Shown one piece after another: positions 9,938 through 28,348 of a DNA stretch of 64,000 nucleotides. The notes beneath the pieces were generated by a model. The model made no database searches. It was not told the origin of the DNA and worked only from the letters and a program-made list of their open reading frames with translations. Made by a program: the position numbers and the translations under genes. Source of the DNA: Thermoleophilia bacterium (lineage in GTDB: Bacteria > Actinomycetota > Thermoleophilia > RBG-16-64-13); assembly GCA_026415615.1 (NCBI GenBank), contig JAOAGT010000003.1:103077-167076 (forward strand), read 5' to 3'. Every line of letters starts with the position of its first letter. Position 1 is the first letter of the stretch.

Positions 9938-10010
9938 TGCCCACGGCAGGATTCGAACCTGCGGCACCTGGCTCCGGAGGCCAGTGCTCTATCCCCTGAG
10001 CTACGTGGGC
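9938..10010 (-). tRNA. tRNA-Arg (anticodon CCG), 73 nt, no encoded 3' CCA
   Basis: The reverse complement folds as a canonical cloverleaf: acceptor GCCCACG/CGTGGGC; D-stem GCTC/GAGC; anticodon stem CTGGC/GCCAG with loop CUCCGGA (U33, anticodon CCG); 5-nt variable loop; T-arm GCAGG-TTCGAAT-CCTGC; discriminator A followed by TTT. Confidence 0.9.
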
Positions 10011-10023
10011 GTGCGGTAGCCCA

Positions 10024-10959
10024 TTATACCCGTTCCAGACGAGCTGGACCCTTTTCCGGGTATGGGACAACTAGCGTATCAAAGTCTTTCGGCAGGTAGC
10101 TGTCCGGGAAAACCTCCCGGGCTTCGTCACGAAGCTCACGCCAGCTGTGGCGGGAGCTTATGTGAGTAAGGATCAACGTCTTTACACCCGCAGCCGCAGC
10201 GACAAGAGCAGCCTCTCGGGCTGTTGAGTGCTTGGTCTCTAGCGCCCGCTCTAGTTCTGAGGAGCCAAAAGTGCTGTCGTGAACAAGCACTGTGGCAGAC
10301 CGTGCCAACTCAATCACGGAGGCGGCAGGCCGAGTATCGCCCGAGATTACAACCTTCCTTCCCTCGCGAGCTGCATCCATGACCTCCTCCGGCCTTATCA
10401 CCCGTCCGTTGGCAGCGGTGATTGTTTCCCCTCTTTGAAGCCGCCCGAAATCTGGACCAGGCGTGACTCCGAGCGCTATTGCCCTCTCGGGATGAAACCG
10501 GCCAGGACGAGGTTTCTCTTCGAGGGCCCATGCTAAGCCAGGAACTCCATGATCTGTAGCAGCTGTCCGCAACTGGTAATCACCCCGGTCGATTACGGCC
10601 CCCGGCTCTATCTCCTCTACAACAAAGGGGAAACGAGGCCGCCCCACTAGTCGCTCCGCATCTTTAAGTAACTCGTAGGTTCCAGGTGGGCCAAGCAAAA
10701 GTAGAGGCTCCTCTCGTCCCAGTAGACTGTAGGTTTTAAGCAGACCTGGCAGTCCCAAGTAATGGTCCCCGTGAAGATGGGTCACTAGAATCAAGTTGAT
10801 GCGCGCCAGACCCACAGAACGCATGAGCTGACGCTGCGTCCCCTCGCCACAATCAACGAGAATTCGTTCTGAGCCACGAGCAATAAGAATCGCTGGCGAA
10901 CCACGGTCCACCGTAGGTGTAGCACCAGCTGTTCCGAGAAAGACTAGGTGTAGGTCCAA
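10024..10959 (-). CDS. rnz: Ribonuclease Z (tRNA 3' endonuclease, metallo-beta-lactamase fold)
   Basis: FLGTAGATP, HLHGDHYLGLPGLL and a C-terminal HDSTF-type motif. Lies immediately upstream of a CCA-less tRNA. Confidence 0.85.
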   Translation of the reverse strand: MDLHLVFLGTAGATPTVDRGSPAILIARGSERILVDCGEGTQRQLMRSVGLARINLILVTHLHGDHYLGLPGLLKTYSLLGREEPLLLLGPPGTYELLKDAERLVGRPRFPFVVEEIEPGAVIDRGDYQLRTAATDHGVPGLAWALEEKPRPGRFHPERAIALGVTPGPDFGRLQRGETITAANGRVIRPEEVMDAAREGRKVVISGDTRPAASVIELARSATVLVHDSTFGSSELERALETKHSTAREAALVAAAAGVKTLILTHISSRHSWRELRDEAREVFPDSYLPKDFDTLVVPYPEKGPARLERV

Positions 10960-10965: not shown

Positions 10966-11568
10966 TTAACTGGGATTTTCTGCCTCAGGTTGGTTGGCGT
11001 CGGTATCCGTAGCCGCGCCCCTGTGGCCCCTGTTGGCTCTGCGGCTGCCGCGGACGATAAGCCTGATTCTGTCCGCCTCTGAGCCTCTGGGCCAGTGGAA
11101 GAACGTGGGGTTGCAGCAGCCAGAAGGAGCGTACAAAGACTCATAAGCCTGCACTACCGTAACCCGGCAATGAGGCAAAGGAGGTCGCCAGATCCGCAAA
11201 TATCCGTACGGATCACGCACACTCGAGGGCTCGACGCCATCTTTGAGAAAAACATCCAACACCAGCTCGGGTAGAAAAACCTTGTGCAGGCAGCCAAAGT
11301 ACGAAGTCTCGCCTTCCTGAAAGACATAGATACAACGACATCCAGAACGCAGACACTGCCAGGGTGATACCACCCTTTCGCAAATCACCTCGCACTCGCG
11401 GCATTCCAAGCGCAGTCGCTCACGCAGCCGCTGCGCGCGTGCACTCAACCATGTGGTGTCGTCCGCGTGTTTCATGCTTTTCAGTATACCCTGGATCCAC
11501 ACCTCCGTGCCCCAGTATGGACACACCTCACCCGCCGGTAGAACTTTCCCACCGCGAGCCCGGCACAA
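10966..11568 (-). CDS. Hypothetical Cys-rich protein (13 Cys; CRECEVICER...CLRSGCRC motif), function unknown
   Basis: It is the only long ORF filling the 570-nt space between rnz and the pilin-cluster genes. A more likely start is the internal ATG at 11475 (MKHADD...), which removes the overlap with the upstream gene. Confidence 0.35.
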   Translation of the reverse strand: MCRARGGKVLPAGEVCPYWGTEVWIQGILKSMKHADDTTWLSARAQRLRERLRLECRECEVICERVVSPWQCLRSGCRCIYVFQEGETSYFGCLHKVFLPELVLDVFLKDGVEPSSVRDPYGYLRIWRPPLPHCRVTVVQAYESLYAPSGCCNPTFFHWPRGSEADRIRLIVRGSRRANRGHRGAATDTDANQPEAENPS

Positions 11569-12664
11569 GTCTGGCCCGCCTCAGCGAGCAATCAGTGGCC
11601 CACCGCAAGACCGCAGGGCAAAAAACCACTGTTCCGCTTTCACCCACGTCAACCGTGCCCGTCGCCATGACGGCCCCACACACTGTTGTTCCGTCCAGCA
11701 GTATTGACCCCTCATCCACTACGACGACAGCCCGCACGAGCCCAAGACCCCGCGCGTCTAGATCAGCTCCGCCGGTCAGCACAACCAAGACAGGCTCCGA
11801 GTTGTTCCGCACATGCAGCGCCTTCTCGGGGAAAGACACGCGTCGCCCCGTGCGCGCTTGGATAAGAAACACCCCCTCTTCAGCAACCACCCCGACGCGG
11901 TCCCCTGTTTCAGAGAGAAATCCTGTGTCTTGAATCTCTGCCATCAACGACACTGCAGTGCGCCAGCCTCCATCTAATGACCATGGCTCTTCTAGAGGTA
12001 AGACCTGACAGTTCTCTGCTATTGGGGCCACAGTCTCAGGGCGAGTGAGGTAAGCAACCGCGGGCCGAGCAGGCCCTTTTTCCTCGTCTGCACTCGACGT
12101 GTCTAACTCGTCATCTGCACTCGAAGTGTCCAAATCACTTTGTAGCCACACCTGGCTTCGAGTGGGATCGGCCATGACCTCCGTCGCCACTACCGCAGCA
12201 AAGGGAAGGTCGAGCCCGTCTCGTCCTCGTTCCACCCACGCACTCGCAGCCAGAGCACAGATTTGGGGGTCGTGGCGAACCGTCGCTTCCAAGGCCCAAT
12301 TCTCGCAACCGGGAATCGCCTCAAGTGCGCCTTCGACCCGCCCCAAGCCCGAGAAACTCTCAGTCTCAACACGGCTCCAAGGAGTCGGCTGCCAGCTAAG
12401 TAGGGCGCTGTACCGAAGTAAGTCAAGCGCTTGATCTCTCGCCAGCATGAAGTCTCTCCCACGCCTCTCATCCGCTGCTGCCCTGTGTGCGCAGATAAGC
12501 ACCGTCGAAAGCACCTGAATAGAAACGGCTGTCATCAAGGAGGCCAACAGAACGAAAAGAAGAACGGACCCCTGCGCACCGAGAAGCAACGGGTGCCTGC
12601 TACCTCTGGGAATGTGCCCCTTCAGGGAAGCCACACTACCTCCCCACAGGAGCTTCTGTGGCAA
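11528..12664 (-). CDS. Hypothetical membrane-anchored protein with acidic 9-aa tandem repeat; possibly a GspK-like degenerate pseudopilin
   Basis: N-terminal hydrophobic helix (LLLGAQGSVLLFVLLASLMTAVSIQVL) but no Glu at +5. Contains the repeat LDTSSADDE / LDTSSADEE. It is the last gene of the minus-strand pilin operon. Confidence 0.4.
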   Translation of the reverse strand: MPQKLLWGGSVASLKGHIPRGSRHPLLLGAQGSVLLFVLLASLMTAVSIQVLSTVLICAHRAAADERRGRDFMLARDQALDLLRYSALLSWQPTPWSRVETESFSGLGRVEGALEAIPGCENWALEATVRHDPQICALAASAWVERGRDGLDLPFAAVVATEVMADPTRSQVWLQSDLDTSSADDELDTSSADEEKGPARPAVAYLTRPETVAPIAENCQVLPLEEPWSLDGGWRTAVSLMAEIQDTGFLSETGDRVGVVAEEGVFLIQARTGRRVSFPEKALHVRNNSEPVLVVLTGGADLDARGLGLVRAVVVVDEGSILLDGTTVCGAVMATGTVDVGESGTVVFCPAVLRWATDCSLRRARLVPGSRWESSTGG

Positions 12665-13253
12665 CCGACACGAGCGCGACTAGATCATTGTCTGTCATCC
12701 TCAGATGAAGTGTCACAGCTCTTATCAGGGACATAGCACTCTGAAGAACCTGCTCCCGCGTGGACCCATCCTCCAGGACATATGCGAGCCGAGATGGCTG
12801 GGCCACATCATGGAGCATTGTCTTGTTGTCACGGTAAAGGGAGTGAGCAAAAGTTTTCGGTCGGAAACTGGGACAAAGTCCCCAACGACGCATGAGACTC
12901 CCCGACGCAATCTCCCACTCAACAATGATGGGAGTCTCTGAATTTGCCTCGCGACGCAAAAATACGAGCTGGCTGGGACCCGCCTCCAAGATTGGGCCGG
13001 CAGTGGCAAAACGGCACCCGTGGGCTGTAGCCAGGCGGAGATCTCTTTCAAGCCGGGCAACGGCAACCCGCCCCTGGAGATAGCCGACCATAGCGTCGGA
13101 TTCAGCAGAGGCTCTCTTGGTTACCGCGAGAAACAGGAGTCCCGCAGCGCCAACCAGAACGACCGTAACAACTAGGCCGATCAAGAGCTCAATCAGTGTA
13201 AAACCGTTATTGCTCCTAAAAGTAGACATCGAGAGAACGCCCGATCTCCACAA
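12636..13253 (-). CDS. Prepilin-type N-terminal cleavage/methylation domain protein (minor pilin / pseudopilin)
   Basis: Class III signal MSTFRSNNG|FTLIELLIGLVVTVVLV with Glu at +5. A more likely start is ATG at 13229. Confidence 0.7.
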   Translation of the reverse strand: MWRSGVLSMSTFRSNNGFTLIELLIGLVVTVVLVGAAGLLFLAVTKRASAESDAMVGYLQGRVAVARLERDLRLATAHGCRFATAGPILEAGPSQLVFLRREANSETPIIVEWEIASGSLMRRWGLCPSFRPKTFAHSLYRDNKTMLHDVAQPSRLAYVLEDGSTREQVLQSAMSLIRAVTLHLRMTDNDLVALVSVATEAPVGR

Positions 13254-14055
13254 GCCATGACTGGCTCTGTCCTTCGAGTTCTACTGTGACCACTCCCTCC
13301 CCGGCGGGACTTATCGTCCGCAGCAATCCTTTGCACTCGTCGGCTACCGTGCAGGGCAAACCAGTGGTATGCAAACCAGCTGTGGACAAGAACGGGATGT
13401 GCACCACCGCGGCAGCCCAATCCGGTGACTGCCCAGCCGCGGGTTCCAGGTCGCCCCCAGAGGTCTCACTGCAACTTGCAAATGAAGCGCCCTGAGTTTC
13501 TCCGTCGGAGACTTCGCTAACAGTGATGCGCCACGGTGCCCCCCAAGACCCCGTCACCTTGTGGACCCGGAGAACCACCTCGTGTCCTGCACTAGCAATC
13601 TGGGGTAGTCCGCTTTTCCAGCATTCGGGCGGCAACGCGGCCTCGCCGTTGTTAACCAGAAACTCGCCCTTAAACCAGCCGTCAATCCACAGACCCACCT
13701 TCTTGTAGCAGCCGGAATCCGCGCCGCCCGCGGGCAAGTCCCAGTCGTCTGAAACCGCAACCTTGAGCTCGCCGCGTGCATTCCACGAAACTGACTGAAC
13801 TTGTTCTCCCCAACACCAAGCCTTCTTGCCGTTTGCTTCGGTAGACTCCTTCTCCGCAGAGTCTGTTGCAGTTGCGGGCTGCTGCTCGGTGCGAAGAGCG
13901 GCCGAAGCCGAAGCCAGCGAGGCCGCCATGCTCACGAGGAAAACTGCCATTAGAGACAACACGACTACCGCCGCCAGGACCTCAAAGAGGAGAAAGCCTT
14001 GTTCCATTTGGCAGCTGTGGCAGAGTGCGTCCAGGCTTGGCCGTTCTTTCGTCAT
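13216..14055 (-). CDS. Prepilin-type minor pilin / pseudopilin
   Basis: MEQG|FLLFEVLAAVVVLSLMAV (Glu at +5). A more likely start is at 14007. Confidence 0.6.
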   Translation of the reverse strand: MTKERPSLDALCHSCQMEQGFLLFEVLAAVVVLSLMAVFLVSMAASLASASAALRTEQQPATATDSAEKESTEANGKKAWCWGEQVQSVSWNARGELKVAVSDDWDLPAGGADSGCYKKVGLWIDGWFKGEFLVNNGEAALPPECWKSGLPQIASAGHEVVLRVHKVTGSWGAPWRITVSEVSDGETQGASFASCSETSGGDLEPAAGQSPDWAAAVVHIPFLSTAGLHTTGLPCTVADECKGLLRTISPAGEGVVTVELEGQSQSWLVEIGRSLDVYF

Positions 14056-14612
14056 TACTTATCTGCCTCGTAGTTTCGAACGGTGAATCCCGAGACTGGA
14101 CGAACCACCACTCTGTAGCCTGCATTGTGAGAGTGGAAATAGACTGACCCGCCCCCGGACGGCGCTGCAAACTCACCGCTAAAGCGGACTCTAACGCCGT
14201 CTGATGACTGCCAGGAAGCAGGGTTGGCTGAGATAGAACGGACCGTAGGAAACTCGCCGAGATCAGAGCGAGTGTCGCCACCGCTAGCAACCAGGCATAG
14301 GTCGGTAGGACCGGCAACTATGGTGCGAGAACCACCACGCCACATTACATCTATCTGGGCCCAAGCTGCCGCGGCCTGCCAGCACTGGGCAGCTCCTCGG
14401 GCGCTTTGCACCATGAAGCCAGCATGTGCAAATCTAACGGCGGCAACCACACAGATGGCCACAACGGCAAGCACCACAAGAAGCTCCACCGCACTGAACC
14501 CGTACGCAGGCACGATGGCGCCACTACTGTCAAACGACCTTTTCATGCTCGATAGAGTAAAGCCGGAGGGTTGAGTTGGTGAGACAACCTTAGTTGGAGA
14601 ATGGCGGAACAA
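14055..14612 (-). CDS. Prepilin-type minor pilin / pseudopilin
   Basis: MKRSFDSSGAIVPAYG|FSAVELLVVLAVVAI. The start codon of the ORF-track call at 14612 is TTG; a more likely ATG start is at 14546. Confidence 0.7.
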   Translation of the reverse strand: MFRHSPTKVVSPTQPSGFTLSSMKRSFDSSGAIVPAYGFSAVELLVVLAVVAICVVAAVRFAHAGFMVQSARGAAQCWQAAAAWAQIDVMWRGGSRTIVAGPTDLCLVASGGDTRSDLGEFPTVRSISANPASWQSSDGVRVRFSGEFAAPSGGGSVYFHSHNAGYRVVVRPVSGFTVRNYEADK

Positions 14613-14711
14613 GACGAATTCAGATCACCCAGCAGGCCGCCGAGGTAGTGCGGTTACCGCTTCCGTCTCCCGCGGCTCTAGAGGCGTGCACCCAGTCGGG
14701 CGAAGATCTAA

Positions 14712-15239
14712 TTACCAGCCGAGTTCGGCCTCTCCGTCAACCACTTTCACCTTGACATACCCGGTTTGCCTGAGGTCGACGGTGTTCACCTGGATGCCAA
14801 ACAGGTTTCCGGTAGCGCTGCGGGTAGCGATGTCCAACACGGTCTTGGACTCGGGATAGAACGCGACTTGGGATTGGGCCGCCTCCGCGGTCAGGTCTTC
14901 ACTTATTCGAGGGGGAGCAGTCGAGACCAGGTCGGAGTCGCTCTCTAGAAAGCTTACGCTCGGCTCTATCTTATTGAGCATGTCGGCCGTGATCTCGGCA
15001 TAGGACCCCGTCTCCACCAAAGCACTTTGCACGACAGTAAGAGCATTGCGCACGAGTGAGTAGGCAGCTGTGTCGGCTGCGCGCTCTCGCTGCCCCGCAT
15101 ACAGGGGAATGGCTATTACAACCAAGATCGCGATCACGATGATTACTACTAGCAGCTCGACGAGGGTGAAACCTGCTTGGGGCGCAAGTGCATGAGTGAA
15201 CCAGACTCTGGTCGGAGGAAAGTCTTTTTTGGCCGCCAT
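14712..15239 (-). CDS. Type IV pilin (major-pilin-like, PilA/ComGC class), paralog 1
   Basis: ...APQAG|FTLVELLVVIIVIAILVVIAIPLYAGQRERAADTAAYSLVRNALT. No Cys in the mature protein. An AGGAGAGG RBS precedes the start. Confidence 0.8.
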   Translation of the reverse strand: MAAKKDFPPTRVWFTHALAPQAGFTLVELLVVIIVIAILVVIAIPLYAGQRERAADTAAYSLVRNALTVVQSALVETGSYAEITADMLNKIEPSVSFLESDSDLVSTAPPRISEDLTAEAAQSQVAFYPESKTVLDIATRSATGNLFGIQVNTVDLRQTGYVKVKVVDGEAELGW

Positions 15240-15287
15240 GTGGTCGCCTCTCCTGCGTTTTCAGAGCGTCCGGTCTCACCACGCGCT

Positions 15288-15941
15288 TCAGCCAGCGGGT
15301 GTCTTCTTTAGAGTGATGCCCTGGGCGGCAGCCTGCTCGAGCAGCTGCTGTGCTTCATCAGCCCGCCCTTGGGAAGAGAGCAGTCGGTACAAGATCTCGT
15401 AAGAGCGAGCATAGCCAGGTTCACTCTCTATCGCCTTCCGCAGGACTGCTTCTGCCCTAGCTTCGTCGCCGCAAGCGATCAGCGCTTGAGCCCAGAAGGT
15501 GAGGTTCTTCGCGCTAGGCTCAAGCGACGCCGCCTCACCAAGCACTCTTGCGGCATCGGCCGGCCTTCCCTGATGATTAAGGTAGTTGAAGCCGAGCTCC
15601 ACGCGCACTTGGGCGTTGTCAGGAACAAGCGCAACCACCCGCTCTTGCATGACAAGCGCTTCGTCGTAGCGTCCTAGAAGTAGAAGACACACCGAGGCCT
15701 GTTCCAGCGCCTCCGTGTCCTCCGGATGTTCGCGCAGGATCTCCTTGTAGAGTGACAGGGCGTGTTCAATATGGCCCTGTTCTTGAAGCGCGCGGGCTTG
15801 TCCTGCGCGGTCGCTGCAGCCGGAGAAGGCAAGAATCACGGAAGCAAGCGCCACAGCCAGAACCAGGCCGAGGGCTGCCAGCGCTGCGGAACGAGCCCGC
15901 ATCCCAATGCCTAGATAATTTGTTGCTCTTCTGCCCTGCAT
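15288..15941 (-). CDS. TPR-repeat lipoprotein (PilF/Tgl-like position inside pilin operon)
   Basis: Signal peptide ending LAFSGC (putative lipobox), then at least four TPR-like helical repeats (ALSLYKEILREHPEDTEALEQ..., ARSYEILYRLLSSQGRADEAQQLLEQA). Confidence 0.65.
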   Translation of the reverse strand: MQGRRATNYLGIGMRARSAALAALGLVLAVALASVILAFSGCSDRAGQARALQEQGHIEHALSLYKEILREHPEDTEALEQASVCLLLLGRYDEALVMQERVVALVPDNAQVRVELGFNYLNHQGRPADAARVLGEAASLEPSAKNLTFWAQALIACGDEARAEAVLRKAIESEPGYARSYEILYRLLSSQGRADEAQQLLEQAAAQGITLKKTPAG

Positions 15942-15965
15942 GTCCGTGAACAGCCTACAGAGTAA

Positions 15966-15995
15966 GAGCGGGCGGCCCTTTGTGGTCGCCCGCTC
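15966..15995 (-). terminator. GC-rich hairpin (9-bp perfect stem GAGCGGGCG/CGCCCGCTC, 12-nt loop) about 90 nt downstream of pilin paralog 2
   Basis: Seen directly in the sequence. The flank is modestly U-rich on the minus strand (UUACUCUGU). It may act as an attenuator between the major pilin gene and downstream genes. Confidence 0.4.
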
Positions 15996-16086
15996 GTTAC
16001 TAGTCCGGTACCATGATCACCTTCGACTCAGCTACATGGCCACGAGCCTCTAGGCACACGGTACGTGCACATCAGCCGAACCTTTA

Positions 16087-16548
16087 TCACCAGGCCGCTT
16101 CCTCACCGTCGATGTAGAAGGTGTTGCCACCGTTGGCACCTTTATTTACCAAGACACCGAAGGTCTTGCCTGACTCAGACTTTGAACCGACCTGGTATGT
16201 GTCAGCCGTGCCGTCATAGTTCACTTGGTTCTGCGAGGCAAGTGCGGTCGGAGCTGTAGCGGCATTTGCTAGTGGCACGAACGTTATTGACGGCTCAATA
16301 GCTTTGAGTACGTCCGCGGTCATCTGGGTGGGGACAAAGGTTCTTAGGTCAACGTACGCCGATTCAATCGCGGTCATGGCGTTACGAACCAGAGACTTTG
16401 CCGCGGCATCCTGTGCTTTCTGAAGCTGCCCCAGGAACGTCGGGATGGCGATAGCCGCCAGGATGGCGATGATAATGATCACCACCAAGAGTTCGATGAG
16501 GGTAAAGCCCTTCTCGCCCCTCATCCTTTTACGGATCAGACTTAACAT
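16087..16548 (-). CDS. Type IV pilin (major-pilin-like), paralog 2
   Basis: MLSLIRKRMRGEKG|FTLIELLVVIIIIAILAAIAIPTFLGQLQKAQDAAAKSLVRNAMT. A strong RBS AAGGAGGAGG lies 6 nt upstream of ATG 16548. The N-terminal 60 aa are near-identical to paralog 1 and the C-terminal domain is divergent. Confidence 0.8.
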   Translation of the reverse strand: MLSLIRKRMRGEKGFTLIELLVVIIIIAILAAIAIPTFLGQLQKAQDAAAKSLVRNAMTAIESAYVDLRTFVPTQMTADVLKAIEPSITFVPLANAATAPTALASQNQVNYDGTADTYQVGSKSESGKTFGVLVNKGANGGNTFYIDGEEAAW

Positions 16549-16618
16549 TGTTTGCCTCCTCCTTGTAACGTACTACTTTGCTTGCCTTTTCTTGCGGCCT
16601 TTCCAGCCCGTCGCTACT

Positions 16619-16645
16619 TTGATCGGCATTTTGTGCTTGGACTTT
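16619..16645 (-). promoter_or_regulatory. Candidate sigma-28 (SigD/FliA)-type promoter, CTAAAG-N15-GCCGATCA, upstream of pilin paralog 2
   Basis: The reverse complement of 16619-16646 reads CTAAAG-(15 nt)-GCCGATCA. Against the consensus TAAA-N15-GCCGATAT this is 4/4 at -35 and 6/8 at -10. It lies about 70 nt upstream of the start codon. Confidence 0.25.
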
Positions 16646-16811
16646 AGCGGTCTTTTGGAGGCACACAACTGAGACTTTTGGCCGACTGCGGCCGATGACG
16701 CAGCGCTCGCCTAGCGCTTGCCTGCGGGGATAACGCCCATTCCTGACCGCCTGCTGCTACCCAGTCCTAACCCCCTGCCGCCGAATTGCCGTGGCTGGCT
16801 GGCGCTGAGTG

Positions 16812-16857
16812 GGTAAAACGACAATTAGGTAAAGCGACAGGTATATTTTGTCGATAT
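16812..16857 (+). promoter_or_regulatory. Direct repeat GGTAAARCGACA x2 (16812-16823, 16828-16839) overlapping a candidate sigma-28-type promoter TAAAG-N15-GTCGATAT (16830-16857)
   Basis: -35 TAAA at 16830-16833 and -10 GTCGATAT at 16850-16857 (7/8 to GCCGATAT). It lies about 85-130 nt upstream of the PilV-like gene. An AT-rich TATATT/TATATA stretch is adjacent. Confidence 0.25.
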
Positions 16858-16940
16858 ATACGAGATGAAAGAGGAAGCATGCCAAGCAACGAGGCTGAGC
16901 AACCCGATAAGCCTGAGCAATCGACTAGGCACACCTACCC

Positions 16941-18512
16941 ATGAAAAGCAAGATGCTGACACAAGCAACTAGGTACAGGGAACATATGCCGCGGCACAAA
17001 GCAAAGCACCGCGGAAGAGCGGGCCTGCGTGGCTTCACGCTCATTGAAGTGCTTATTGCCTCGATGCTCCTCCTGATTGTTATGGCTGGAATAGTCCCGT
17101 TCTTCGTGGGCGGATTGGCGCAGGCGTCTACTGTCCGCTACAAGAGCCTTGCCACCAATATCGCTCGCGAGCGTATGGAACAAATCCGCCAGCTTGATTA
17201 TCGCGAAATAACAGAGAATCCTGCAGAAGGTACTACGCTAAGCGCGCGTTTTGGCACTACCGCGGAGCGTCGCGGCATAAAGTTCAATATCTCGTATAAG
17301 GTAGAGTCCTCCACATACGACACTGGGTTGCTCAAGAAAGTTACGGTCACAGTTTCCTGGACTGCTCCGCCGCGGGTATCCCCAGCGTCGATAACCACCC
17401 TTATCCACCAACAGTTCCTGGGGCCGCGAGGTGCTTACCTTGAGCTGTCGCCAACCCAGTCAGATCCGTTGGGTACTCCGTTTCCACTGATAGCCGGGTC
17501 CAGCACGCGCATTCGCTACCACATAGCTGAAGCAGATTGGGGGCTAGTATTCCGAGACGTGACCAAACCCAGCACAACTGCGAGAGATGTATTTGCGCGC
17601 TTCTTCTTTGTGGGCAGCGATGGTAGGACTATCTTTCTAGGGGACCCCGATGACGAGAACCGCATCGACACCGCTTATTTGCGCTACTCTACCAGCGGAA
17701 GCCAACTAACCGACGTCTGGTTTGAGTACTCGTTCGACACACGGCTTATCCCAGACGGATATTGGGAGCTCCGGGCAGTCGCCTACAACGAATACGAGCA
17801 ACCGGGCAACGTCTGGCGCCTTAGAGTAAGAATCGAGAACGGCGCCCCGGCCGCTCCCACTCAATTCACGGCAGTTGCTCAGCCGGACAATCAAAGCGTA
17901 GTCCTATACTGGCTGGGAGGCCCAGAGTCCGACCGCGACCATTACGTGCTGGAGCGCTCGGTTTGGAATAGCCAAGCCCAACAGTGGACTTCCTGGCAGC
18001 CGGTGGCTCCAAACATCGCCCCTGACACTGTCACATACACCGACCAGGGAAGCGTCGCCTTAAAGGTTCATCCTTGGGGTAGTCAAGAGACAACAAACTG
18101 GTACCTGTATCGCATCTACGCCGTTGACAGGCAGCCTGGCAACATCGGACCCGCTGCCGCGCTAACCCAGCCAGTGGTAATACCTCCCATGACTACCACC
18201 ACGACCACGCAGACAACTACGACAGTCTCCACGACCAGTACCACGACCATCTCCACTACTACGACGACTCTCGCCACTTACTCGGTCAAGGTGCAGAACA
18301 ACGCAAAATCGCACTACCGGGTGGATGTGCGAAACGCTTCGAATGCCCTGGTCTACACTGGCACGGTGAAGAAAGGCCAGACCTTGACCATCTCCGGGCT
18401 ACCGGCAGGGCAGTACAAAATAGACGCCACACCAATCAGTGGCGGATCTATAGTCTCGGCCTCCTTCTCTTTGCCCGCACAGGCCGACCAGATTGTTCTT
18501 ACTTTGCTCTAG
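16941..18512 (+). CDS. PilV-like prepilin-type protein with FN3-like domain, Thr-rich linker and C-terminal beta-sandwich domain (putative pilus-associated adhesin)
   Basis: Class III signal ...RAGLRG|FTLIEVLIASMLLLIVMAGIV. An FN3-type pattern (PAAPTQFTAVAQPDNQSVVLYWLGGPESDRDHYVLERS...W...YTDQG). A T-rich linker (TTTTTQTTTTVSTTSTTTISTTTTT). A roughly 90-aa C-terminal domain. A more likely start is ATG 16986 (MPRHKAKHRG...). Confidence 0.7.
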   Translation: MKSKMLTQATRYREHMPRHKAKHRGRAGLRGFTLIEVLIASMLLLIVMAGIVPFFVGGLAQASTVRYKSLATNIARERMEQIRQLDYREITENPAEGTTLSARFGTTAERRGIKFNISYKVESSTYDTGLLKKVTVTVSWTAPPRVSPASITTLIHQQFLGPRGAYLELSPTQSDPLGTPFPLIAGSSTRIRYHIAEADWGLVFRDVTKPSTTARDVFARFFFVGSDGRTIFLGDPDDENRIDTAYLRYSTSGSQLTDVWFEYSFDTRLIPDGYWELRAVAYNEYEQPGNVWRLRVRIENGAPAAPTQFTAVAQPDNQSVVLYWLGGPESDRDHYVLERSVWNSQAQQWTSWQPVAPNIAPDTVTYTDQGSVALKVHPWGSQETTNWYLYRIYAVDRQPGNIGPAAALTQPVVIPPMTTTTTTQTTTTVSTTSTTTISTTTTTLATYSVKVQNNAKSHYRVDVRNASNALVYTGTVKKGQTLTISGLPAGQYKIDATPISGGSIVSASFSLPAQADQIVLTLL

Positions 18513-19197
18513 GAAAGAGTGGATGGTGGCAAGCGAGATGGCAACTCGGTCGACACGATTTCTAACAACTAGACGCGTTCGACCCGGGAGGGATGCCGCA
18601 GGCTTCACTCTTGTGGAAGCCTTGGTTACGGCCGTGCTGATTGCTGTCGTTTTGCTTGCAATTTTCACCATCTGGTTTGGGCTGCAGCGCACCTACGCTT
18701 TTACAGAAGAGGACATGAAGGCGCAGCAGGAGGCGAGAAATGCTCTCTCGGAGATGGTCGAGCTCATTCGCACAGCTCGACGGCCCAACCCAGCACCTTC
18801 AGAGAATCTGGACTTGGTCATTGTTACAGCAGACAGCAACTCGCTGGTGTTGTGGTCCGACGTGGATCGTGACCCGCAGCATGATCTCGAGTTAGTGCGC
18901 TTTCGCGTGGATTTCCAGTCGCGCACGCTCTACCGCGACGTGAGCCAGACCGGTGATATCACTTTTTCTTCGGGCACATCAGTTCGACTGGTGAGTAGTT
19001 GGGTGACCAACGACGAAACTCTGCCGCTTTTTACGTACATTGACTCGAAGGGGATCACATTGCCTACCCCGGTGCCGGATCCTGTAGCCATTCGGCAAGT
19101 AGTGATTGACCTGCGTATAGACGTGGAGGTCGGCAAATCGCCGATTGCACACGAGCTTCGCTCCACAGTACAACCCCGAAATCTGCGCCAGTACTAG
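18493..19197 (+). CDS. PilW-like prepilin-type minor pilin
   Basis: ...RDAAG|FTLVEALVTAVLIAVVLLAIFTIW with Glu at +5. It overlaps the end of the upstream gene by 20 nt, suggesting translational coupling. Confidence 0.65.
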   Translation: MFLLCSRKEWMVASEMATRSTRFLTTRRVRPGRDAAGFTLVEALVTAVLIAVVLLAIFTIWFGLQRTYAFTEEDMKAQQEARNALSEMVELIRTARRPNPAPSENLDLVIVTADSNSLVLWSDVDRDPQHDLELVRFRVDFQSRTLYRDVSQTGDITFSSGTSVRLVSSWVTNDETLPLFTYIDSKGITLPTPVPDPVAIRQVVIDLRIDVEVGKSPIAHELRSTVQPRNLRQY

Positions 19198-19218
19198 AAG
19201 CCGGAGGAGGGATGGCTC

Positions 19219-20436
19219 ATGACTGCCAGGAAGACCGTCCAAGCAGTGACCTGTATTCGGGAGAGATTAGCTAGAGAGTCCGGAGTGGTCCTCATAGTTG
19301 TGATGGCCTTTGTGGCGGTGTTCGCAGCTACGGGCGCCGGACTCTACTGGCTGGTGTCTTCGCAAACTAACGCCACTGAGCTTGAACGCACAGATGTCAA
19401 GGCTTTCAATGTCGCAGAAGCAGGCATAGATGCTGGCATGCTTGCCCTTAAGCTGAACTGGCCTGACGCTCCCGATAAGGTAGCCGCCGTTGACAATGAC
19501 ATTCTAAAGACTGTCATTCAGCAAAACAGCCCTGGCTTGTGGGACCCAAAACGGTCTAACCCGAGCGAGTTTATCCAGGTGGAGATATACGACAATGTCG
19601 ACGCCTCGGGCAATACCACAAGCGTTGCGAATCCAGACCCGTCCACACGCGTTTATTGGGATTCGAACAAGGACGGCCTGATGTTTGTCGACTCTACCGC
19701 TAACGTCGACGATGACCGGCACCGCATTCTGATCCTGGCCCAGCGACAGTACTGGGATCTTACCTTCCCCGTGGGTCTAGCCCTATGGTCAGGAGTTGTG
19801 GACAGCAACGGACAAGGCTTGTACGTAACTGTAGAGGATCCAAACCCTGCCCCATATGTTCCATATGCTTTTTACGATGTACACGACGCTCAAGGCAAGA
19901 AGATAAGTGCAGGGTACGCGGTTGCCCCAGCTCCTTCAGCATCTTCATTCAATGAGGTATTCCCGGAGTCACTGCGAGCCGCGCTGGAAGCCATCGCCCG
20001 AGAGCAGGGCACCTATTTCACTAGCGACACTCAGGCAAGTGCCTTCCTTGCCTCGGGCCAAGCTGGTGGAAAGGTCGTGTACATCAAGTCAAACTCAGCT
20101 GTAACCATAAGCGGCGACAAGCGGGTGGGAAGCAAAGATTCACCCGTGGTGGTAATAATTGACACGCCCGACAACTCAGAAAATGTCTGGGACTTTCGAG
20201 GAACAGCTGATTTCTACGGCGTCCTCGTTACGATCGGAAACAGCACCCTACGAGGAACTTCCGGCATACACGGAGCCCTCTACTGCTCGGGTACGTTGCT
20301 CAACAAGGGCACTGGCTCTAGCGGCGAGATTAATTACAACCAGACCTGCATCCAAAACATAAACAGGCAGTACACCATCAGCGTAAACATCGTTCCCAAC
20401 ACCTGGGAGGAGTATACGCTGCCCCGCTCGCAGTAG
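19219..20436 (+). CDS. PilX N-terminal-domain protein (putative pilus tip / minor pilin)
   Basis: The N-terminus ESGVVLIVVMAFVAVFAATGAGLYWL...KAFNVAEAGIDAGMLAL matches the PilX_N pattern (hydrophobic helix followed by AF..AEAG). 405 aa. Confidence 0.6.
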   Translation: MTARKTVQAVTCIRERLARESGVVLIVVMAFVAVFAATGAGLYWLVSSQTNATELERTDVKAFNVAEAGIDAGMLALKLNWPDAPDKVAAVDNDILKTVIQQNSPGLWDPKRSNPSEFIQVEIYDNVDASGNTTSVANPDPSTRVYWDSNKDGLMFVDSTANVDDDRHRILILAQRQYWDLTFPVGLALWSGVVDSNGQGLYVTVEDPNPAPYVPYAFYDVHDAQGKKISAGYAVAPAPSASSFNEVFPESLRAALEAIAREQGTYFTSDTQASAFLASGQAGGKVVYIKSNSAVTISGDKRVGSKDSPVVVIIDTPDNSENVWDFRGTADFYGVLVTIGNSTLRGTSGIHGALYCSGTLLNKGTGSSGEINYNQTCIQNINRQYTISVNIVPNTWEEYTLPRSQ

Positions 20437-20439: not shown

Positions 20440-20868
20440 CTAAAGCCCGCTGCTCCCGAAACCCGCTTCTCCGCGGAGAGAACCAGGCAGGTCCTGCGCC
20501 GGCACGTACTCCGCTTCCGGCACCCGCTGGATCATAAGCTGAGCGATCCGGTCGCCTTTGTGTACCACGAAGGGCTCAGAGCCGGAGTTATACAGGATCA
20601 CCCTTACCTCGCCGCGGTAATTGCTGTCAATCAGCCCAGGGGAATTCACTAGCATTAGTCCGTGATGCAAAGCTAGACCGGACCGCGGCAATACCAGTCC
20701 TGCGTACCCATCGGGAATGGCAAGAGCAAGGCCCGTGCCCACATCGCGTCTTTCCCCAGGCTGTATCACTGCCTCTTCTACGGAGAACAAATCAGCCCCC
20801 GCATCTCCCGGGTGCGCCTGCCTCGGAAGTCGCGCCTCTGGGTGTAAGAACTTGACGGCTATTTGCAT
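20440..20868 (-). CDS. dut: dUTP diphosphatase
   Basis: Motifs AGADL, RSGLAL, GLIDSNYRGEV, and a C-terminal GFGSSG. Confidence 0.9.
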   Translation of the reverse strand: MQIAVKFLHPEARLPRQAHPGDAGADLFSVEEAVIQPGERRDVGTGLALAIPDGYAGLVLPRSGLALHHGLMLVNSPGLIDSNYRGEVRVILYNSGSEPFVVHKGDRIAQLMIQRVPEAEYVPAQDLPGSLRGEAGFGSSGL

Positions 20869-20941: not shown

Positions 20942-22105
20942 CTACAGCCGCAAAGATTCGCGGATGCGCCGCACCGCCTCAGAGATCAAATGATCTGGAG
21001 TGGTCAACGACAGGCGCACAAACCCCTCGCCTGCGGGTCCATACCCACGCCCAGGGGTTACGACCACTGCTGCTTGCTCCAAAACATGCTCGCTAAAACT
21101 AGCGGAGGTGTAGCCTTCGGGTACTGGCACCCACATGTAGACTGTGGCCTTTGGCTTTGGTACCCGCATGCCCACTGCTTCAAGGGCTTCCGCCAGAAGA
21201 TCACGGCGACGGCGGTAGATCGCGCACATCTCGTGCACAAAATCCCATGGACCATTGAGAATAAATGCCGCCGTACGCTGCAGCGCATCGAACATGCCGG
21301 AGTCCATGTTGGTCTTCAAACGCCAGAGATGTTCCAGGATCTCATGATTTCCCACCGCAAATCCGATACGCCAACCAGTCATGTTGAACGGTTTTGAAAA
21401 ACTGAAGAACTCGACACCAACATCTTTGGCACCTGGGGTAGCAAGAAAGCTTGGAGCTACATAGCCGTCAAACGTGAGTTCGGAGTACGCGTTGTCATGA
21501 ACCACGGCGATGTCGTACTTCTTCGCGAAAGCTACAACCTTCTCAAAGAATCCCTCTCGCACCACCGCTGTCGTAGGATTGTTCGGATAGCTGATAAACA
21601 GAACCTTGGCCCGTCGTGCCTCTTCTTCGGTAACTTCGTCAAGATCAGGGAGAAAGTCGTTTTCGGGGCGCAAGGTAAGATACTTGACTTGGGCGCCCGC
21701 TATCACCGAACCCGCAGCGTACACCGGGTAGCCAGGGTCAGGGACCAGAGCGAGATCTCCCGGGTCAAGCAGAGCTAGACATATGTGTGCCAGCCCTTCT
21801 TTAGCCCCTAGCAAGGGAAAGAACTCGCGCTCGGGGTCAATTTCCACTCCAAACCTGCGTTGATAGAAGGCCGCAGCCGCACGAGCAAACTCAGGTAGCC
21901 CAGCATTAGAGGGGTAGCGGTGATTCCGCGGATCAGCCACTTGCCGCTGCATCTCCTCGACTATGTAAGCTGGAGTGGGAAGGTCAGGGTCCCCAATGCC
22001 GAGACTTATTACCTCCACCCCAGCTTTGCGTTTCTCTTGAATCTTGCGCTCGATCTCAGCAAACAAGTAGGGAGCAACCCCGTCCATCCGGCGGGAAAAA
22101 CGCAC
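20942..22105 (-). CDS. dapL: LL-diaminopimelate aminotransferase-like class I aminotransferase (DapL family)
   Basis: The N-terminal APYLFAEIERK...ISLGIGDPDLPTP aligns with DapL (YLFPEIARR...IRLGIGDVTEPLP). The PLP-lysine region is SFSKPFNMTGWRIG. It is adjacent to dapF. Confidence 0.6.
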   Translation of the reverse strand: MRFSRRMDGVAPYLFAEIERKIQEKRKAGVEVISLGIGDPDLPTPAYIVEEMQRQVADPRNHRYPSNAGLPEFARAAAAFYQRRFGVEIDPEREFFPLLGAKEGLAHICLALLDPGDLALVPDPGYPVYAAGSVIAGAQVKYLTLRPENDFLPDLDEVTEEEARRAKVLFISYPNNPTTAVVREGFFEKVVAFAKKYDIAVVHDNAYSELTFDGYVAPSFLATPGAKDVGVEFFSFSKPFNMTGWRIGFAVGNHEILEHLWRLKTNMDSGMFDALQRTAAFILNGPWDFVHEMCAIYRRRRDLLAEALEAVGMRVPKPKATVYMWVPVPEGYTSASFSEHVLEQAAVVVTPGRGYGPAGEGFVRLSLTTPDHLISEAVRRIRESLRL

Positions 22106-22191
22106 GTTAACCTCCTTCCTCGTTTTCTTGGGGGCTGTTCCTCGTCTTTGGACTCGCTAGTTACCCCTCGAGCTGGCCGCCCCATAAGGCC

Positions 22192-23097
22192 CTAAATGTC
22201 AGCGCGCCCGTCAAGCCACCACCCCAAATTCGCAAGCAGCTCGGGGGACAATTCTGCTGTAAAGACCTCCTGAGCGGGCCCGGTCATGAACACGCGGTAA
22301 CTTGAGACGTCGCCACCGTCGTGCGAATCGGTCGGGTACACCTCAATGAGAAGATCTCCGCCCGGAAGACAGACAGTCATCGGGCTTTCTCCCACCCCGC
22401 GTCGTACACACGCAGCAGCTACTGCTGTCGCTCCTGTCCCGCAGGCCTGAGTCTCCCCTGCTCCGCGTTCCCAGACTCTCACGCGAGCAGTCGTAGTATC
22501 CTCTAGCTGGACAAACTCTACGTTTGTCCGGTTGGGAAAGAACTCGTGGTGCTCAATAGCAGGGCCCACCGCGCTGAGATCCACCTGGTTGGGGTCATCT
22601 ACAAAGATGACACAGTGCGGATTGCCCACATCCACGAAGGTAAACTGGTAACGCCTCGCCGGGATCTCAAGTAGTCGGTCAACTACGTCCCCGAATCCGT
22701 CCACTGCCACGTTGTCGCTCCGGAACCGCGCCCAGCCCATATCAACGCGCACCCCTCCGTCGGGCTTGATCTCGACTTCGATAGGGCCAGCGAGAGTCTC
22801 AATAGTAAATCGGGCCGTCTTCACCACGCTGCGGCGCTCGAGATACCGGGCAAACATCCGGACCCCGTTACCACACATCTCAGCTTCACTACCATCAGGG
22901 TTGAGCACACGCATCCGGGCAACTGCTTCAGAGACTGCTCCAGTTGGCGGGCAAAACACCAGAATTCCGTCTGAGCCTATGCCGCGGTGGCGGTCACAAA
23001 GGAGAGCGATAGCCTCAGCAGTCAAAGGGGCGGGAAGCTCGCTCTCCTCCACAATAATGTAGTCATTGCCTAGTCCCTGCCACTTGGCCACCCTCAC
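22192..23097 (-). CDS. dapF: Diaminopimelate epimerase
   Basis: KWQGLGNDYIIV, and the two catalytic Cys motifs (EAEMCGNG, ACGTGA). Confidence 0.85.
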   Translation of the reverse strand: MRVAKWQGLGNDYIIVEESELPAPLTAEAIALLCDRHRGIGSDGILVFCPPTGAVSEAVARMRVLNPDGSEAEMCGNGVRMFARYLERRSVVKTARFTIETLAGPIEVEIKPDGGVRVDMGWARFRSDNVAVDGFGDVVDRLLEIPARRYQFTFVDVGNPHCVIFVDDPNQVDLSAVGPAIEHHEFFPNRTNVEFVQLEDTTTARVRVWERGAGETQACGTGATAVAAACVRRGVGESPMTVCLPGGDLLIEVYPTDSHDGGDVSSYRVFMTGPAQEVFTAELSPELLANLGWWLDGRADI

Positions 23098-23100
23098 CTC

Positions 23101-24051
23101 TCAAGCTCCTTCCGCTGGACGCAAATCTGCGATCATCGCTGCCACTTCCGCCGGGGCCTTTCCCGTGACGTCAATGATAACAGCGCCCTTGACCTTCCGA
23201 AGCCATGTCCACTGGCGCCTAGCATACTTGCGGGTGGCAGAAGCGACGTTGGCGATTGTCTGGTCAAGAGTCTGAGACCCTTCAAGATAGCGGACGATGT
23301 CCTCGTAGCCGATGGCACTACAGATACCCGGCCTACCAGGCCTTGTATCGTTCTCGCCGTACTCTCTGCGAAATCGCGCCACCTCTTCCACACCGCCCTC
23401 AAGCACAATTCGCGCCGCTCGTGCGTTGATGCGCTCATAGAGCGCCCCTCTTTCGTGCACCAGACCCACGATCACCGAAGGGTAGTAGTAGTCAGGGGAC
23501 CAGAGATCCGAGCGTCCGGACCACTTTTGCCCCGTAAGGTAAATAGCCTCAAGAGCGCGGATTACACGCCTTAGATTGCGAGGGTCAATTCTTTCCGCAG
23601 CTTCCGGATCAAGAGCTGCGAGCTCTGCGTGAAGAACAGCCGGCCCCTCCACCGCGGCTCGCGCTTCGAGATGCTGACGCAGCGCGGGGTCCCCTTGGGT
23701 ATGTACGGCAAGCGGAGCCAGAGCAGCCCGCATGTATAGGCCTGTGCCCCCCACCACCAAAGCTCGTCCGCACCGGCTCAGATCCTCCCTGATCAGGGGT
23801 CGCGCCACTTCGGCATACTCAGCTGCCGAAAACGCGAGTCGGGGGTCAACAAACCCCACCAACTCATGCCGGGCAGCTGTACGCTCCTCAGCAGTGGGCT
23901 GGTTAGTGAGAACGGGAAAACCGCGGTAAACCTGCATAGAGTCGCAGGAAATAATGCGTACGCCCAGCAGACGGGCAAGTTCGATAGCCACAGATGTCTT
24001 GCCCACTCCTGTGGGGCCAAGAATGCCTATGACTAGCGGTGGTTTGGACAA
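23101..24051 (-). CDS. miaA: tRNA dimethylallyltransferase
   Basis: IGILGPTGVGKTSVAIELA; IISCDSMQVYRGFPVLTNQPT. Confidence 0.9.
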   Translation of the reverse strand: MSKPPLVIGILGPTGVGKTSVAIELARLLGVRIISCDSMQVYRGFPVLTNQPTAEERTAARHELVGFVDPRLAFSAAEYAEVARPLIREDLSRCGRALVVGGTGLYMRAALAPLAVHTQGDPALRQHLEARAAVEGPAVLHAELAALDPEAAERIDPRNLRRVIRALEAIYLTGQKWSGRSDLWSPDYYYPSVIVGLVHERGALYERINARAARIVLEGGVEEVARFRREYGENDTRPGRPGICSAIGYEDIVRYLEGSQTLDQTIANVASATRKYARRQWTWLRKVKGAVIIDVTGKAPAEVAAMIADLRPAEGA

Positions 24052-24098
24052 GTGAAGCTACGCACCTCGAAAACCTAACTGTTAATAGAAGGTCCTCG

Positions 24099-25517: not shown

Positions 25518-25581
25518 GACCGATTTACTAGCCCACTGGACCTACAGGGCGCCAAGGCGAGCCTCGGCCGTCGCCGCAGTT

Positions 25582-27123: not shown

Positions 27124-27502
27124 ATTCTCACTGCTCCAATTACAGCTGCGACCCCGCGGCGCAGCCGTCTCCCAGTCTTGATCACTTCGCCTCGGTCTCT
27201 CTCGCTGTACACTAAAAAGCCGAGCCCAGAGCTCGGCCGTTACCCTCTTTCTCGCACCTTGCCCTTTGCGGGGCAAGACCCCCCGGCAGACAGCCTGCGT
27301 TCTATACAGGCTACCGCATCAAAAGTAGCTTCCCCTTATCTACAAGTCCTCAGCTAAGCGCTCCACCTAAAACACCTTTCTCACTGCGCGCTGAGCCAAG
27401 AACTGCAAAAACACAAGCGCAAGGTCGATCAAGAGATTGTTTCGACCGAAATACCGTGCCTCGATACTTTACTCTTTCGCGAAAGAAAGTGTCAAGCAAC
27501 AG

Positions 27503-28255
27503 CTAGCGCACGACGTGCTCTTCCGCGGGGCAATCGTCGAGGCCGACAGTGTTTTCCAGCAAGCGAATTACGCTATGCACCATGTCCCAGTCGTGCCCGC
27601 GACGCATTAGAAAGCCAGCGATGCGCCTACTCGTTTTCTCCTTGTCTTGGGCAAAGGCGCGGCCAAACCGGCGCCTCACTTCTTGTATCAGAGGCTCCGG
27701 ACACTCACCAGCAGATTCCTTCCCGGTACCACACTCCTCCGCCATGAGCTCATCCAGAATCTGGTCAGCCAGCTCGGAGCTAATCCCGCGGCGACCGAGC
27801 TCGCCGCGAATCCTTGAGATTCCATACCCTCTCTTGTATTTCTCGAGGGCATAGCGCCGCGCAAACCGTACGTCGTCTAGGTACCCGAGCGACCGGAGCC
27901 AGTCAAGAGTCTCCGCTATGACCGGTGGAGAAAACCCTGCTTGCTGCAGACGTGCTTGTAGTTCCCGGCAACTGCGTTCTCGCGTCTCAAGCAGCCTGAT
28001 AGCCCTCTCGCGCGCTCGCCTGCTTGCATCCTGGGCGATGATGGCGTCAAGCCGTGAGGCCGTAACCTTCTCCCCCACCACCAGCCCGCCTCGCGCCACC
28101 AACTCCGCGTCCAGCTCTGCCCAGATGGCCCCGTCGATGTACACCGCCACACGGCCCGCCCGTCCTTTAATGGGCTCAATGGCAGTAATGGCTCCCTCTT
28201 GTGCAGACATAATGACCCTCGCAGAGGTTGGGGATAGTCCTTCCAGGTCTGACAA
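27503..28255 (-). CDS. recX: Recombination regulator RecX
   Basis: RecX-like helical repeats (RARERAIRLLETRERSCRELQARLQQAGF...); immediately downstream of recA. The true start may be the internal MSAQEG. Confidence 0.75.
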   Translation of the reverse strand: MSDLEGLSPTSARVIMSAQEGAITAIEPIKGRAGRVAVYIDGAIWAELDAELVARGGLVVGEKVTASRLDAIIAQDASRRARERAIRLLETRERSCRELQARLQQAGFSPPVIAETLDWLRSLGYLDDVRFARRYALEKYKRGYGISRIRGELGRRGISSELADQILDELMAEECGTGKESAGECPEPLIQEVRRRFGRAFAQDKEKTSRRIAGFLMRRGHDWDMVHSVIRLLENTVGLDDCPAEEHVVR

Positions 28256-28348
28256 CCTTCCCTGGGATGAAACCTCCCCTGGGATGGGCGATAGCCAGCG
28301 TCTTGGCGCGCCTTGACGTCAGCCTTCACCGCTTAGGTGCAGGTAACC

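Follow-up and report, generated by a model that had tools for sequence, protein, structure and literature searches.

Organization of the rnz–dut interval

In a 64,000-nucleotide stretch of contig JAOAGT010000003.1 from an uncultured Thermoleophilia bacterium (assembly GCA_026415615.1; hereafter the window, to which all positions without a locus name refer), eleven open reading frames (ORFs) fill positions 10966–20436 between the genes for RNase Z (rnz, 10024–10959; TIGR02651, 302 bits) and dUTPase (dut, 20440–20868), in two divergent groups. Most genes of this locus have been deposited only as "hypothetical". A protein with the locus tag N3B14_05920, from a Thermoleophilia metagenome-assembled genome, is 100% identical to one encoded in the window. 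The ORF map confirms the eleven genes counted in the original prediction, which had been drawn from the letters of the window. Seven of the ORFs, encoding proteins of 153, 175, 185, 205, 279, 523 and 234 residues, carry the class III (prepilin) signal G|F-x-x-x-E and, behind it, a hydrophobic stretch of about 20 residues, with a mean hydropathy of 2.3–3.3 over positions +1 to +21. Six of these seven proteins pass the cut-off of TIGR02532, and five of the six also pass that of PF07963, the 185-residue protein falling below it (20.3 vs 21.2). The 279-residue protein matches neither model and was called from the motif alone. From the signal motif, we predict that the precursors would be cleaved and N-methylated by a prepilin peptidase of the PilD/A24 type.

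The motifs, the hydrophobic helix and a lipoprotein signal in a neighboring gene are all found, and the descriptive core of the original prediction is therefore correct: this is a type IV pilin and minor-pilin locus in two divergent operons. The worry that the class III motifs might prove absent on alignment is settled by their presence in seven proteins, six of which match the domain models. The count of eight such signals needs revision, as we find seven canonical signals and two, in proteins of 405 and 378 residues, that lack the glutamate at position 5 (E5). Since the 378-residue protein is itself a PilX-like pseudopilin, nine proteins rather than eight have pilin-type N termini. The pilins had also been described as devoid of cysteine, which a count of the sequences bears out for the proteins of 153, 175 and 523 residues. 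We consider it likely that the interval 11528–20436 is a chromosomal structural-gene locus for type IV pili that is vertically inherited in a clade of Thermoleophilia, Gaiellales and RBG_16_64_13 and driven by the sigma factor WhiG.

Two sets of minor pilins

The minor pilins fall into a minus-strand set (A) and a plus-strand set (B). Set A begins with p185 (14055–14612), a GspH/FimU-like minor pilin with the signal G|FSAVE that scores 20.2 bits against TIGR02532, gives a weak but near-full-length match to XpsH (NF047827, E = 1e-3, residues 38–175) and probably starts at M23. It is followed by p279 (13216–14055), which occupies the GspI/PilV position, has the signal G|FLLFE and contains eight cysteines. 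Its only matches are N-terminal ones to ComGE and ComGF, and other pilins align with its N-terminal helix alone. The protein is kept in relatives at 24–37% identity. Next is p205 (12636–13253; G|FTLIE; PF07963, 28.4 bits), a GspJ/PilW-like minor pilin. The last member, m378 (11528–12664), has the hydrophobic E5-less N terminus G|SVLLF and is a predicted PilX/GspK-like tip subunit. The deposited call for this gene, N3B14_05875, is 306 residues long and begins at Met73; it therefore omits the pilin-like hydrophobic N-terminal helix, which is conserved in 38 homologues. Restoring the helix corrects a gene call that had dropped it.

Set B opens with v523 (16941–18512), a modular PilV/GspI-like minor pilin for which the NCBI start is M16 (508 residues). 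In the structural model, which has a predicted local distance difference test score (pLDDT) of 89.2, an α1 helix and pilin sheet are followed by two β-sandwich modules resembling Fn3, a Thr-rich linker and a C-terminal β-sandwich. On this modeled architecture, v523 is a probable tip adhesin. The linker, at residues 407–437 (18159–18251), contains the Thr-rich run PPMTTTTTTQTTTTVSTTSTTTISTTTTTLA and joins the Fn3-like modules to the C-terminal β-sandwich; it is predicted to be disordered (pLDDT <50) and likely forms an extended or O-glycosylated stalk. The second gene, w234 (18493–19197; G|FTLVE; PF07963, 25.5 bits), encodes a GspJ/PilW-like minor pilin with a ratio of nonsynonymous to synonymous substitution (dN/dS) of 0.18 relative to L044, the closest relative.

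The third member, x405 (19219–20436), is a predicted PilX/GspK-like tip subunit that combines a pilin module with a β-solenoid like that of ice-binding proteins. Its hydrophobic N terminus, G|VVLIV, lacks E5, as is typical of GspK and PilX, and matches GspK (NF037980) at E = 1.3e-5 with 24.9 bits against a cut-off of 130. Structural matches of the model (pLDDT 89.3) are to the solenoids of ice-binding proteins and to ComZ, GspK and XcpX. As expected of a PilX/GspK-type subunit, the N-terminal helix has no Glu5 and the pilin fold superposes on that of GspK; as in ComZ, a β-solenoid is joined to the pilin fold. A profile search of 1.84 billion representatives recovered 1337 relatives at E ≤ 1e-3, 81 of them at E ≤ 1e-30. 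The original prediction had named the plus-strand products PilV-like, PilW-like and PilX_N proteins. PilX_N is matched by 40 of 67 aligned members of the x405 family (best E = 3.4e-8) and not by the copy in the window.

We compared families with one another by hhalign on a3m alignments. The m378 family matches the x405 family over its full length in two independent alignments (probability 96.8–97.8%, E = 3e-10 to 1e-12), and the two proteins share a C-terminal domain; what had been listed as a 378-residue membrane protein is thus better described as a PilX-like pseudopilin and a paralogue of x405. The p205 and w234 families likewise match along their full length (probability 98%, E = 1.7e-13, 177 columns). 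Given these relationships and the homology of the two pilins described below, the locus is predicted to encode two paralogous pilins and two core sets of minor pilins in H-I-J-K order, A comprising p185, p279, p205 and m378, and B comprising v523, w234 and x405. In the NCBIfam scan, no protein of the locus reaches an equivalog cut-off, so we file these proteins as pilins and PilX-like subunits by motif, fold and family-level matches, and not as equivalogs of GspK, ComG proteins or PilV.

Major pilins and a hypervariable cassette

The minus-strand gene nearest the divergent promoters, pil153 (16087–16548), encodes a major type IV pilin with a 14-residue leader and the signal G|FTLIE, scoring 36.8 bits against PF07963 and 34.7 bits against TIGR02532. 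By sequence, it matches Geobacter PilA-N, Thermus PilA4 and other type IVa pilins in the PDB, and an AAGGAGG ribosome-binding site stands ahead of its ATG. It is presumably the main exposed subunit of the filament. A second pilin, pil175 (14712–15239, minus strand; G|FTLVE; PF07963, 29.5 bits), is paralogous to pil153, with 45% identity over 134 residues (E = 6e-31) and an hhalign probability of 100%. Between them lies the gene for a 217-residue TPR lipoprotein (15288–15941, minus strand) with a signal peptide and a lipobox cysteine; the lipobox ...GC is kept in orthologues. This protein matches TPR_19 at E = 3e-18 and Wzy_C_2 at 33.2 bits (cut-off 28.5). It varies in step with the pil153 allele and probably serves as an accessory factor specific to the pilin.

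A hypervariable allele cassette (15146–16345) takes in the 5' end of pil175, all of the TPR gene and the part of pil153 that encodes the globular domain, with the conserved N-terminal helix of pil153 falling outside it. Nucleotide identity to L044 is 38–60% within the cassette and 72–96% in its flanks, and the blastn alignment to L044 has a gap at this position. In L044, with a backbone identity of 83%, the globular domain of pil153 is 49% identical, compared with 77% and 70% in two distant genomes where the backbone identity is 43% and 40%. Overall, its identity shows no correlation with how far the backbone has diverged (Spearman −0.14). The C-terminal domain of pil175, in contrast to that of pil153, is 84% identical in L044, with a dN/dS of 0.08. 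Judged by these identities, the cassette behaves as would be expected where a major pilin is exposed and its accessory gene is linked and allele-specific, and it is the only part of the locus that shows mobile-like behavior. In Pseudomonas aeruginosa, pilA groups carry linked accessory genes, tfpO or tfpW–Z. The cassette resembles these in that the variable globular domain of a major pilin and an adjacent accessory gene diverge or exchange independently of conserved flanks; it differs in that the accessory gene encodes a TPR lipoprotein rather than a known glycosyltransferase or chaperone.

In some relatives, a protein of 583–598 residues with a Wzy_C (O-antigen-ligase-like) domain and C-terminal TPRs is encoded between the minor-pilin and pilin genes (L003, 2924–4675; L043, 1351–3147). 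This candidate pilin O-glycosyltransferase has no counterpart in the window, and its similarity to the TPR lipoprotein is the generic similarity of TPRs and nothing more.

Divergent WhiG-type promoter motifs

The 392-bp intergenic region between the two operons contains a divergent pair of promoter motifs of the sigma-28/WhiG type. The minus-strand motif, P_M (16620–16646), is TAAA-N15-GCCGATCA, 72 bp ahead of the pil153 start codon; with one mismatch, it is the best consensus match in the whole window. The plus-strand motif, P_P (16830–16857), is TAAA-N16-GTCGATAT, 84 bp ahead of the start of the v523 ORF. Counts of the motif across the window equal the shuffle expectation, so a single match means little and it is conservation that makes the case. 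Of 24 related loci, 22 have an equivalent of P_M ahead of the pilin gene, as do L044 and L042, and 20 of 28 have an equivalent of P_P ahead of the 523-residue orthologue, often with zero or one mismatch. The extended consensus across relatives is CTAAAG-N14/15-(T)GCCGATA, and matches with at most one mismatch number 29 in the two short promoter windows versus 5 elsewhere (624 kb). Where the plus operon has been relocated (L002/L009), the motif has moved along with it. Scans for terminators and sigma-70 promoters gave results at chance level, and no riboswitch, including the cyclic di-GMP (c-di-GMP) types, was found at gathering score anywhere in the window or at E ≤ 1 in 14500–17100, the tRNA being the sole RNA recovered.

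The window also encodes a sigma factor of the FliA/WhiG family. The whiG gene (61652–62461, minus strand) adjoins rpsB, 41 kb from the locus, and its product contains Sigma70 regions r2, r3 and r4 and scores 351.4 bits against NF004935 (cut-off 343) and 275.9 bits against TIGR02479. From the promoter motifs and this gene, WhiG apparently switches on both pilus operons. Target promoters of WhiG, with the elements TAAA and GCCGATAA, lie inside a type IV pilus cluster of Rubrobacter (Schumacher et al. 2021, PMC8325347), and Thermoleophilia have been reported to have WhiG and a single-motif RsiG (PMC8325347). The present locus resembles that of Rubrobacter, a member of a sister class, in having the consensus TAAA-N15/16-GCCGATAA ahead of pilus genes and a WhiG equivalog. 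It differs in that only structural subunits are encoded here, the Rubrobacter promoters being set inside a nine- to thirteen-gene pil cluster, and in that RsiG was not found in this window. In Actinoplanes, the pili of zoospores are also under FliA-family control. The conserved promoter pair supports the view of pilus production as the ancestral target of WhiG in basal Actinobacteria.

Further matches to the consensus occur in the window. Just upstream of whiG (62452–62508, minus strand) are two tandem 29-bp repeats, TAAAGA(G/C)TTGCTTGAAGTGTGCAGATGA, each with two mismatches, which may be duplicated autoregulatory whiG promoters; the downstream copy runs into the annotated GTG start codon, so whiG may in fact begin later. 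Upstream of the pnp region (42090–42117, minus strand), a match of the form CAAA-N16-GCCGATAC with two mismatches is probably due to chance.

Assembly machinery and points against the pilus reading

Several observations weigh against reading the interval as a WhiG-driven locus for pili. Searches by tblastn and scans of ORFs detected no PilB, PilT, PilC, PilD, PilM, PilN, PilO or secretin in the 64-kb window, in agreement with the original prediction. With the same tblastn probes (Escherichia coli HofB/C/M/N/O, GspE/F/O/L/D and YggR), no machinery was found within 10 kb of the locus in about 30 related actinobacterial loci. The lone positive lay outside the clade, a secretin in the unrelated, non-actinobacterial locus L037. 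The E. coli queries are poor ones for PilM, PilN and PilO, whose absence is therefore less secure. The GspO probe found no A24 prepilin peptidase in the window or in related loci. The lack of machinery in cis is thus constant in the clade, and the motor, platform, peptidase and PilM/N/O that would stand near the pilins in a complete type IVa system were not found in the window or in the 10-kb flanks. We infer that the pili are assembled by machinery encoded in trans, an arrangement for which we found nothing specific in the literature.

Pfam and NCBIfam scans took in 30 flanking ORFs, all of them housekeeping genes, and the other large ORFs at 20942–30805 were placed by synteny with L001. Candidate large ORFs of the window (587, 564, 556, 426, 416, 395, 389, 387, 361, 354, 351 and 344 residues) were considered as possible machinery and rejected, all of them being housekeeping genes as well; they include ProS, RNase Y, RNase J, NusA, RseP, Dxr, IspG, an XerC-like protein, RpsB and an ABC transporter.

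The remaining points concern the subunits and the promoters. The x405 copy in the window has no Pfam match at E ≤ 0.01, PilX_N (PF14341) included. Because p279 and v523 align only in their N-terminal helices, duplication is demonstrated only among the J- and K-type members, short of two complete paralogous sets. P_P carries two mismatches, both in the −10 element, and a six-frame translation of the window does not contain the RsiG motif E-x3-S-x2-R-x3-Q-x3-D. All of the data come from metagenome-assembled genomes (MAGs), from which the pili are predicted.

Inheritance of the locus and alternative functions

The original prediction had treated the cluster as an acquired module. On that account it would be a self-contained, horizontally acquired island that encodes a new pilus subtype and possibly a non-canonical assembly machine, an idea that can point to the lack of machinery in cis, to the many genes annotated as hypothetical and to a 1.2-kb pilin/TPR cassette that is exchanged or diverges independently of the backbone. 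The composition of the cluster does not fit, since its GC content, said to be lower than that of the flanks, is 0.568 where the remainder of the window has 0.569, and the ranges of GC at third codon positions overlap. Nor does the cluster adjoin a tRNA gene as claimed, because rnz stands between it and the tRNA-Arg (CCG) at 9938–10010, the only tRNA of the window. Its borders have no integrase and no repeats, and the only integrase-family gene in the window is XerC-like (62535–63590). Rather than having been inserted into a housekeeping region, the genes hold the same order in about 20 species-level MAG loci in a tblastn matrix: lipB, rnz, the Cys-rich ORF, and the genes for the 378-, 205-, 279-, 185- and 175-residue proteins, the TPR lipoprotein and the 153-residue pilin, followed divergently by those for the 523-, 234- and 405-residue proteins, and then dut and an aminotransferase gene. 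The rnz–dut order is kept down to about 40% protein identity, and the identities of most locus genes drop in step with the backbone. Genomic-context searches and a survey of a single genome from each species gave 32 loci with relatives of x405, 29 of them from MAGs that carry the label Actinomycetota, Thermoleophilia, Gaiellales or RBG_16_64_13. Relative to L044, at about 85% nucleotide identity, dN/dS is 0.08–0.38 in nine of the ten genes compared, the TPR gene being too diverged to score; x405 was left out, as L044 ends inside it. The prediction had held that the same genes in the rnz–dut interval of relatives, together with adjacent machinery, would count against it, and of these two only the first is found. 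A new pilus subtype is also unneeded: all parts have recognizable counterparts in type IV pili or type II secretion systems and fit the scheme of a major pilin with an H-I-J-K core, and both the PilX solenoid and WhiG control have already been described. With only the cassette behaving as mobile, we reject a genomic island on composition, tRNA position and synteny across about 20 species, and we give the wider idea almost no credence. The gene order, substitution rates and identities instead indicate that the locus is old, vertically inherited and under selection.

The function of the filament could also differ from that of a surface pilus. The locus, or one minor-pilin set with pil175, might build a short Com-type competence pseudopilus with the solenoid PilX-like subunit as DNA receptor at its tip. 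ComGC, ComGD, ComGE and ComGF are among the NCBIfam matches of several proteins, ComZ binds DNA (PMC6561018) and cyanobacteria dedicate one of their two minor-pilin sets to competence (bioRxiv 10.64898/2026.02.12.705559), but the Com matches lie far under their cut-offs and cover the N-terminal helix only (best ComGC, 35.6 bits vs 75). The equivalog-level matches to ComGC, ComGD, ComGE, ComGF and ComGG that would identify a ComG system are absent, no comEA, comEC or dprA was seen in the window, and the fold alone does not permit an inference of DNA binding. We regard a dedicated competence locus as improbable, although the idea overlaps with the pilus reading in that one set could be Com-like. 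Much less probable still is a pseudopilus like that of type II secretion systems, serving protein secretion or Hps-like export of exopolysaccharide in place of surface pili. Weak NCBIfam matches to GspG, GspH, GspI, GspJ, GspK, HpsB and HpsC, a gene order like gspH-I-J-K and the Wzy_C/TPR gene inside the cluster of some relatives are set against the facts that every Gsp and Hps match is under its cut-off, that pil153 matches type IVa pilins in the PDB and that partners of the GspC/L/M/D type were not found. The hypervariable globular domain of the major subunit also argues for a surface-exposed filament and not for a periplasm-like piston, and Actinobacteria are taken to be monoderm.

Two contigs of sample ERZ25039527 depart from the usual arrangement. 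One carries the plus-strand operon at an unrelated site with its WhiG-type promoter retained (L002/L009, 7619–11236). On the second, which may or may not belong to the same genome (L042, 2420–6100), the rnz–dut interval holds three other genes, encoding proteins of 444 residues (with PEGA and CarboxypepD_reg matches), 200 residues and 502 residues, with a WhiG-type motif ahead of them at one mismatch.

Proposed assembly and relation to known systems

For the pilus locus that we favor, we infer tip location, adhesion, two filaments and promoter use by WhiG along the following lines. A prepilin peptidase encoded elsewhere in the genome would cleave each precursor after the glycine. Each I-J-K-type trimer would then form in the membrane, prime assembly on a PilB/PilC-type motor and platform that are also encoded elsewhere, and stay at the filament tip. 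There, the E5-less K-type subunits x405 and m378 would cap the tip with a bulky β-solenoid, and v523, the probable adhesin, would present its Fn3-like modules on the Thr-rich stalk. On a single machine, each set would probably prime its own filament or tip, the two differing in function. WhiG would transcribe both operons from the back-to-back sigma-28-type promoters, placing pilus production under a WhiG switch, possibly with RsiG and c-di-GMP, as in Rubrobacter. A bolder version has one trans-encoded motor that builds two solenoid-capped filaments, set A with pil175 and set B with pil153, under WhiG, RsiG and c-di-GMP, or else a genome that lacks canonical PilB, PilC and PilD and uses another assembly system; we think this rather unlikely and offer it tentatively. 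If true, the two-filament arrangement would extend to basal Actinobacteria a model argued for cyanobacteria and Thermus and, with WhiG control, would identify what the WhiG switch ancestrally controlled.

The locus is closest in plan to the FimU-PilV-PilW-PilX and GspH-I-J-K modules. It shares their gene order and number (H-I-J-K in set A, I-J-K in set B), with canonical prepilin signals in the H-, I- and J-type members and a K-type member without E5. The fimU-pilVWXY1E operon of Pseudomonas is encoded apart from the motor genes, and the separation of minor-pilin and motor genes is common to both. Differences from these modules are that there is no PilY1-like gene here, that the K-type subunit has a β-solenoid in place of the α-domain of GspK, that the I-type subunit of set B reaches 523 residues with Fn3-like modules, that the host is an actinobacterium and that no model reaches its family cut-off.

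The solenoid has a precedent in ComZ of Thermus thermophilus (PDB 6qvi), a competence pilin associated with the tip, in which a β-solenoid sits in a pilin framework (PMC6561018). In its predicted pilin module and β-solenoid x405 is alike, but the two share 8% sequence identity and no sequence-level match, and DNA binding and a PilA2-type partner are features of ComZ. In cyanobacteria, the sets PilX_Com/PilV_Com and PilX_EPS/PilV_EPS prime two distinct filaments, and the PilX proteins have solenoids (bioRxiv 10.64898/2026.02.12.705559). Both systems have two core minor-pilin sets, lack PilY1 and have been suggested to be under second-messenger control, whereas they differ in phylum and cell envelope, in regulation, which there is of the CRP type and here apparently through WhiG, and in the layout of this locus, where the sets stand back to back beside two major-pilin paralogues. 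A two-filament arrangement has been argued for Thermus too. The solenoid-capped PilX architecture and the duplicated minor-pilin sets extend beyond cyanobacteria and Thermus.

Every element of the locus, from the core minor pilins and the solenoid PilX/ComZ subunit to WhiG-controlled pili and pilin allele cassettes, has a described counterpart, and no new kind of machine is revealed. What is specific to it is the duplication of the sets at one locus, the conserved divergent pair of WhiG-type promoters, the variable cassette linked to a TPR gene and the constant separation from the machinery. About ten mostly "hypothetical" genes of widespread uncultured Thermoleophilia and Gaiellales from soil, sediment and hot springs thereby receive a coherent annotation.

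The Cys-rich ORF beside rnz

The last of the eleven ORFs (10966–11568, minus strand) encodes a conserved Cys-rich cytoplasmic protein with no Pfam or NCBIfam match and no hydrophobic segment. Its true start is probably M32, giving a protein of about 169 residues, with the conserved cysteine pattern ECRxCxVICERVV...C...FGC...C...CxNPxF. The original prediction had included it in the pilus operon, but synteny shows that it travels with rnz, always immediately upstream and 4–6 bp from that gene even where another gene parts it from the pilus operon (L043). On this linkage, we assign it to rnz and not to the pilus locus, of which it is probably not a component. The protein may bind zinc and act as a partner or regulator of RNase Z.

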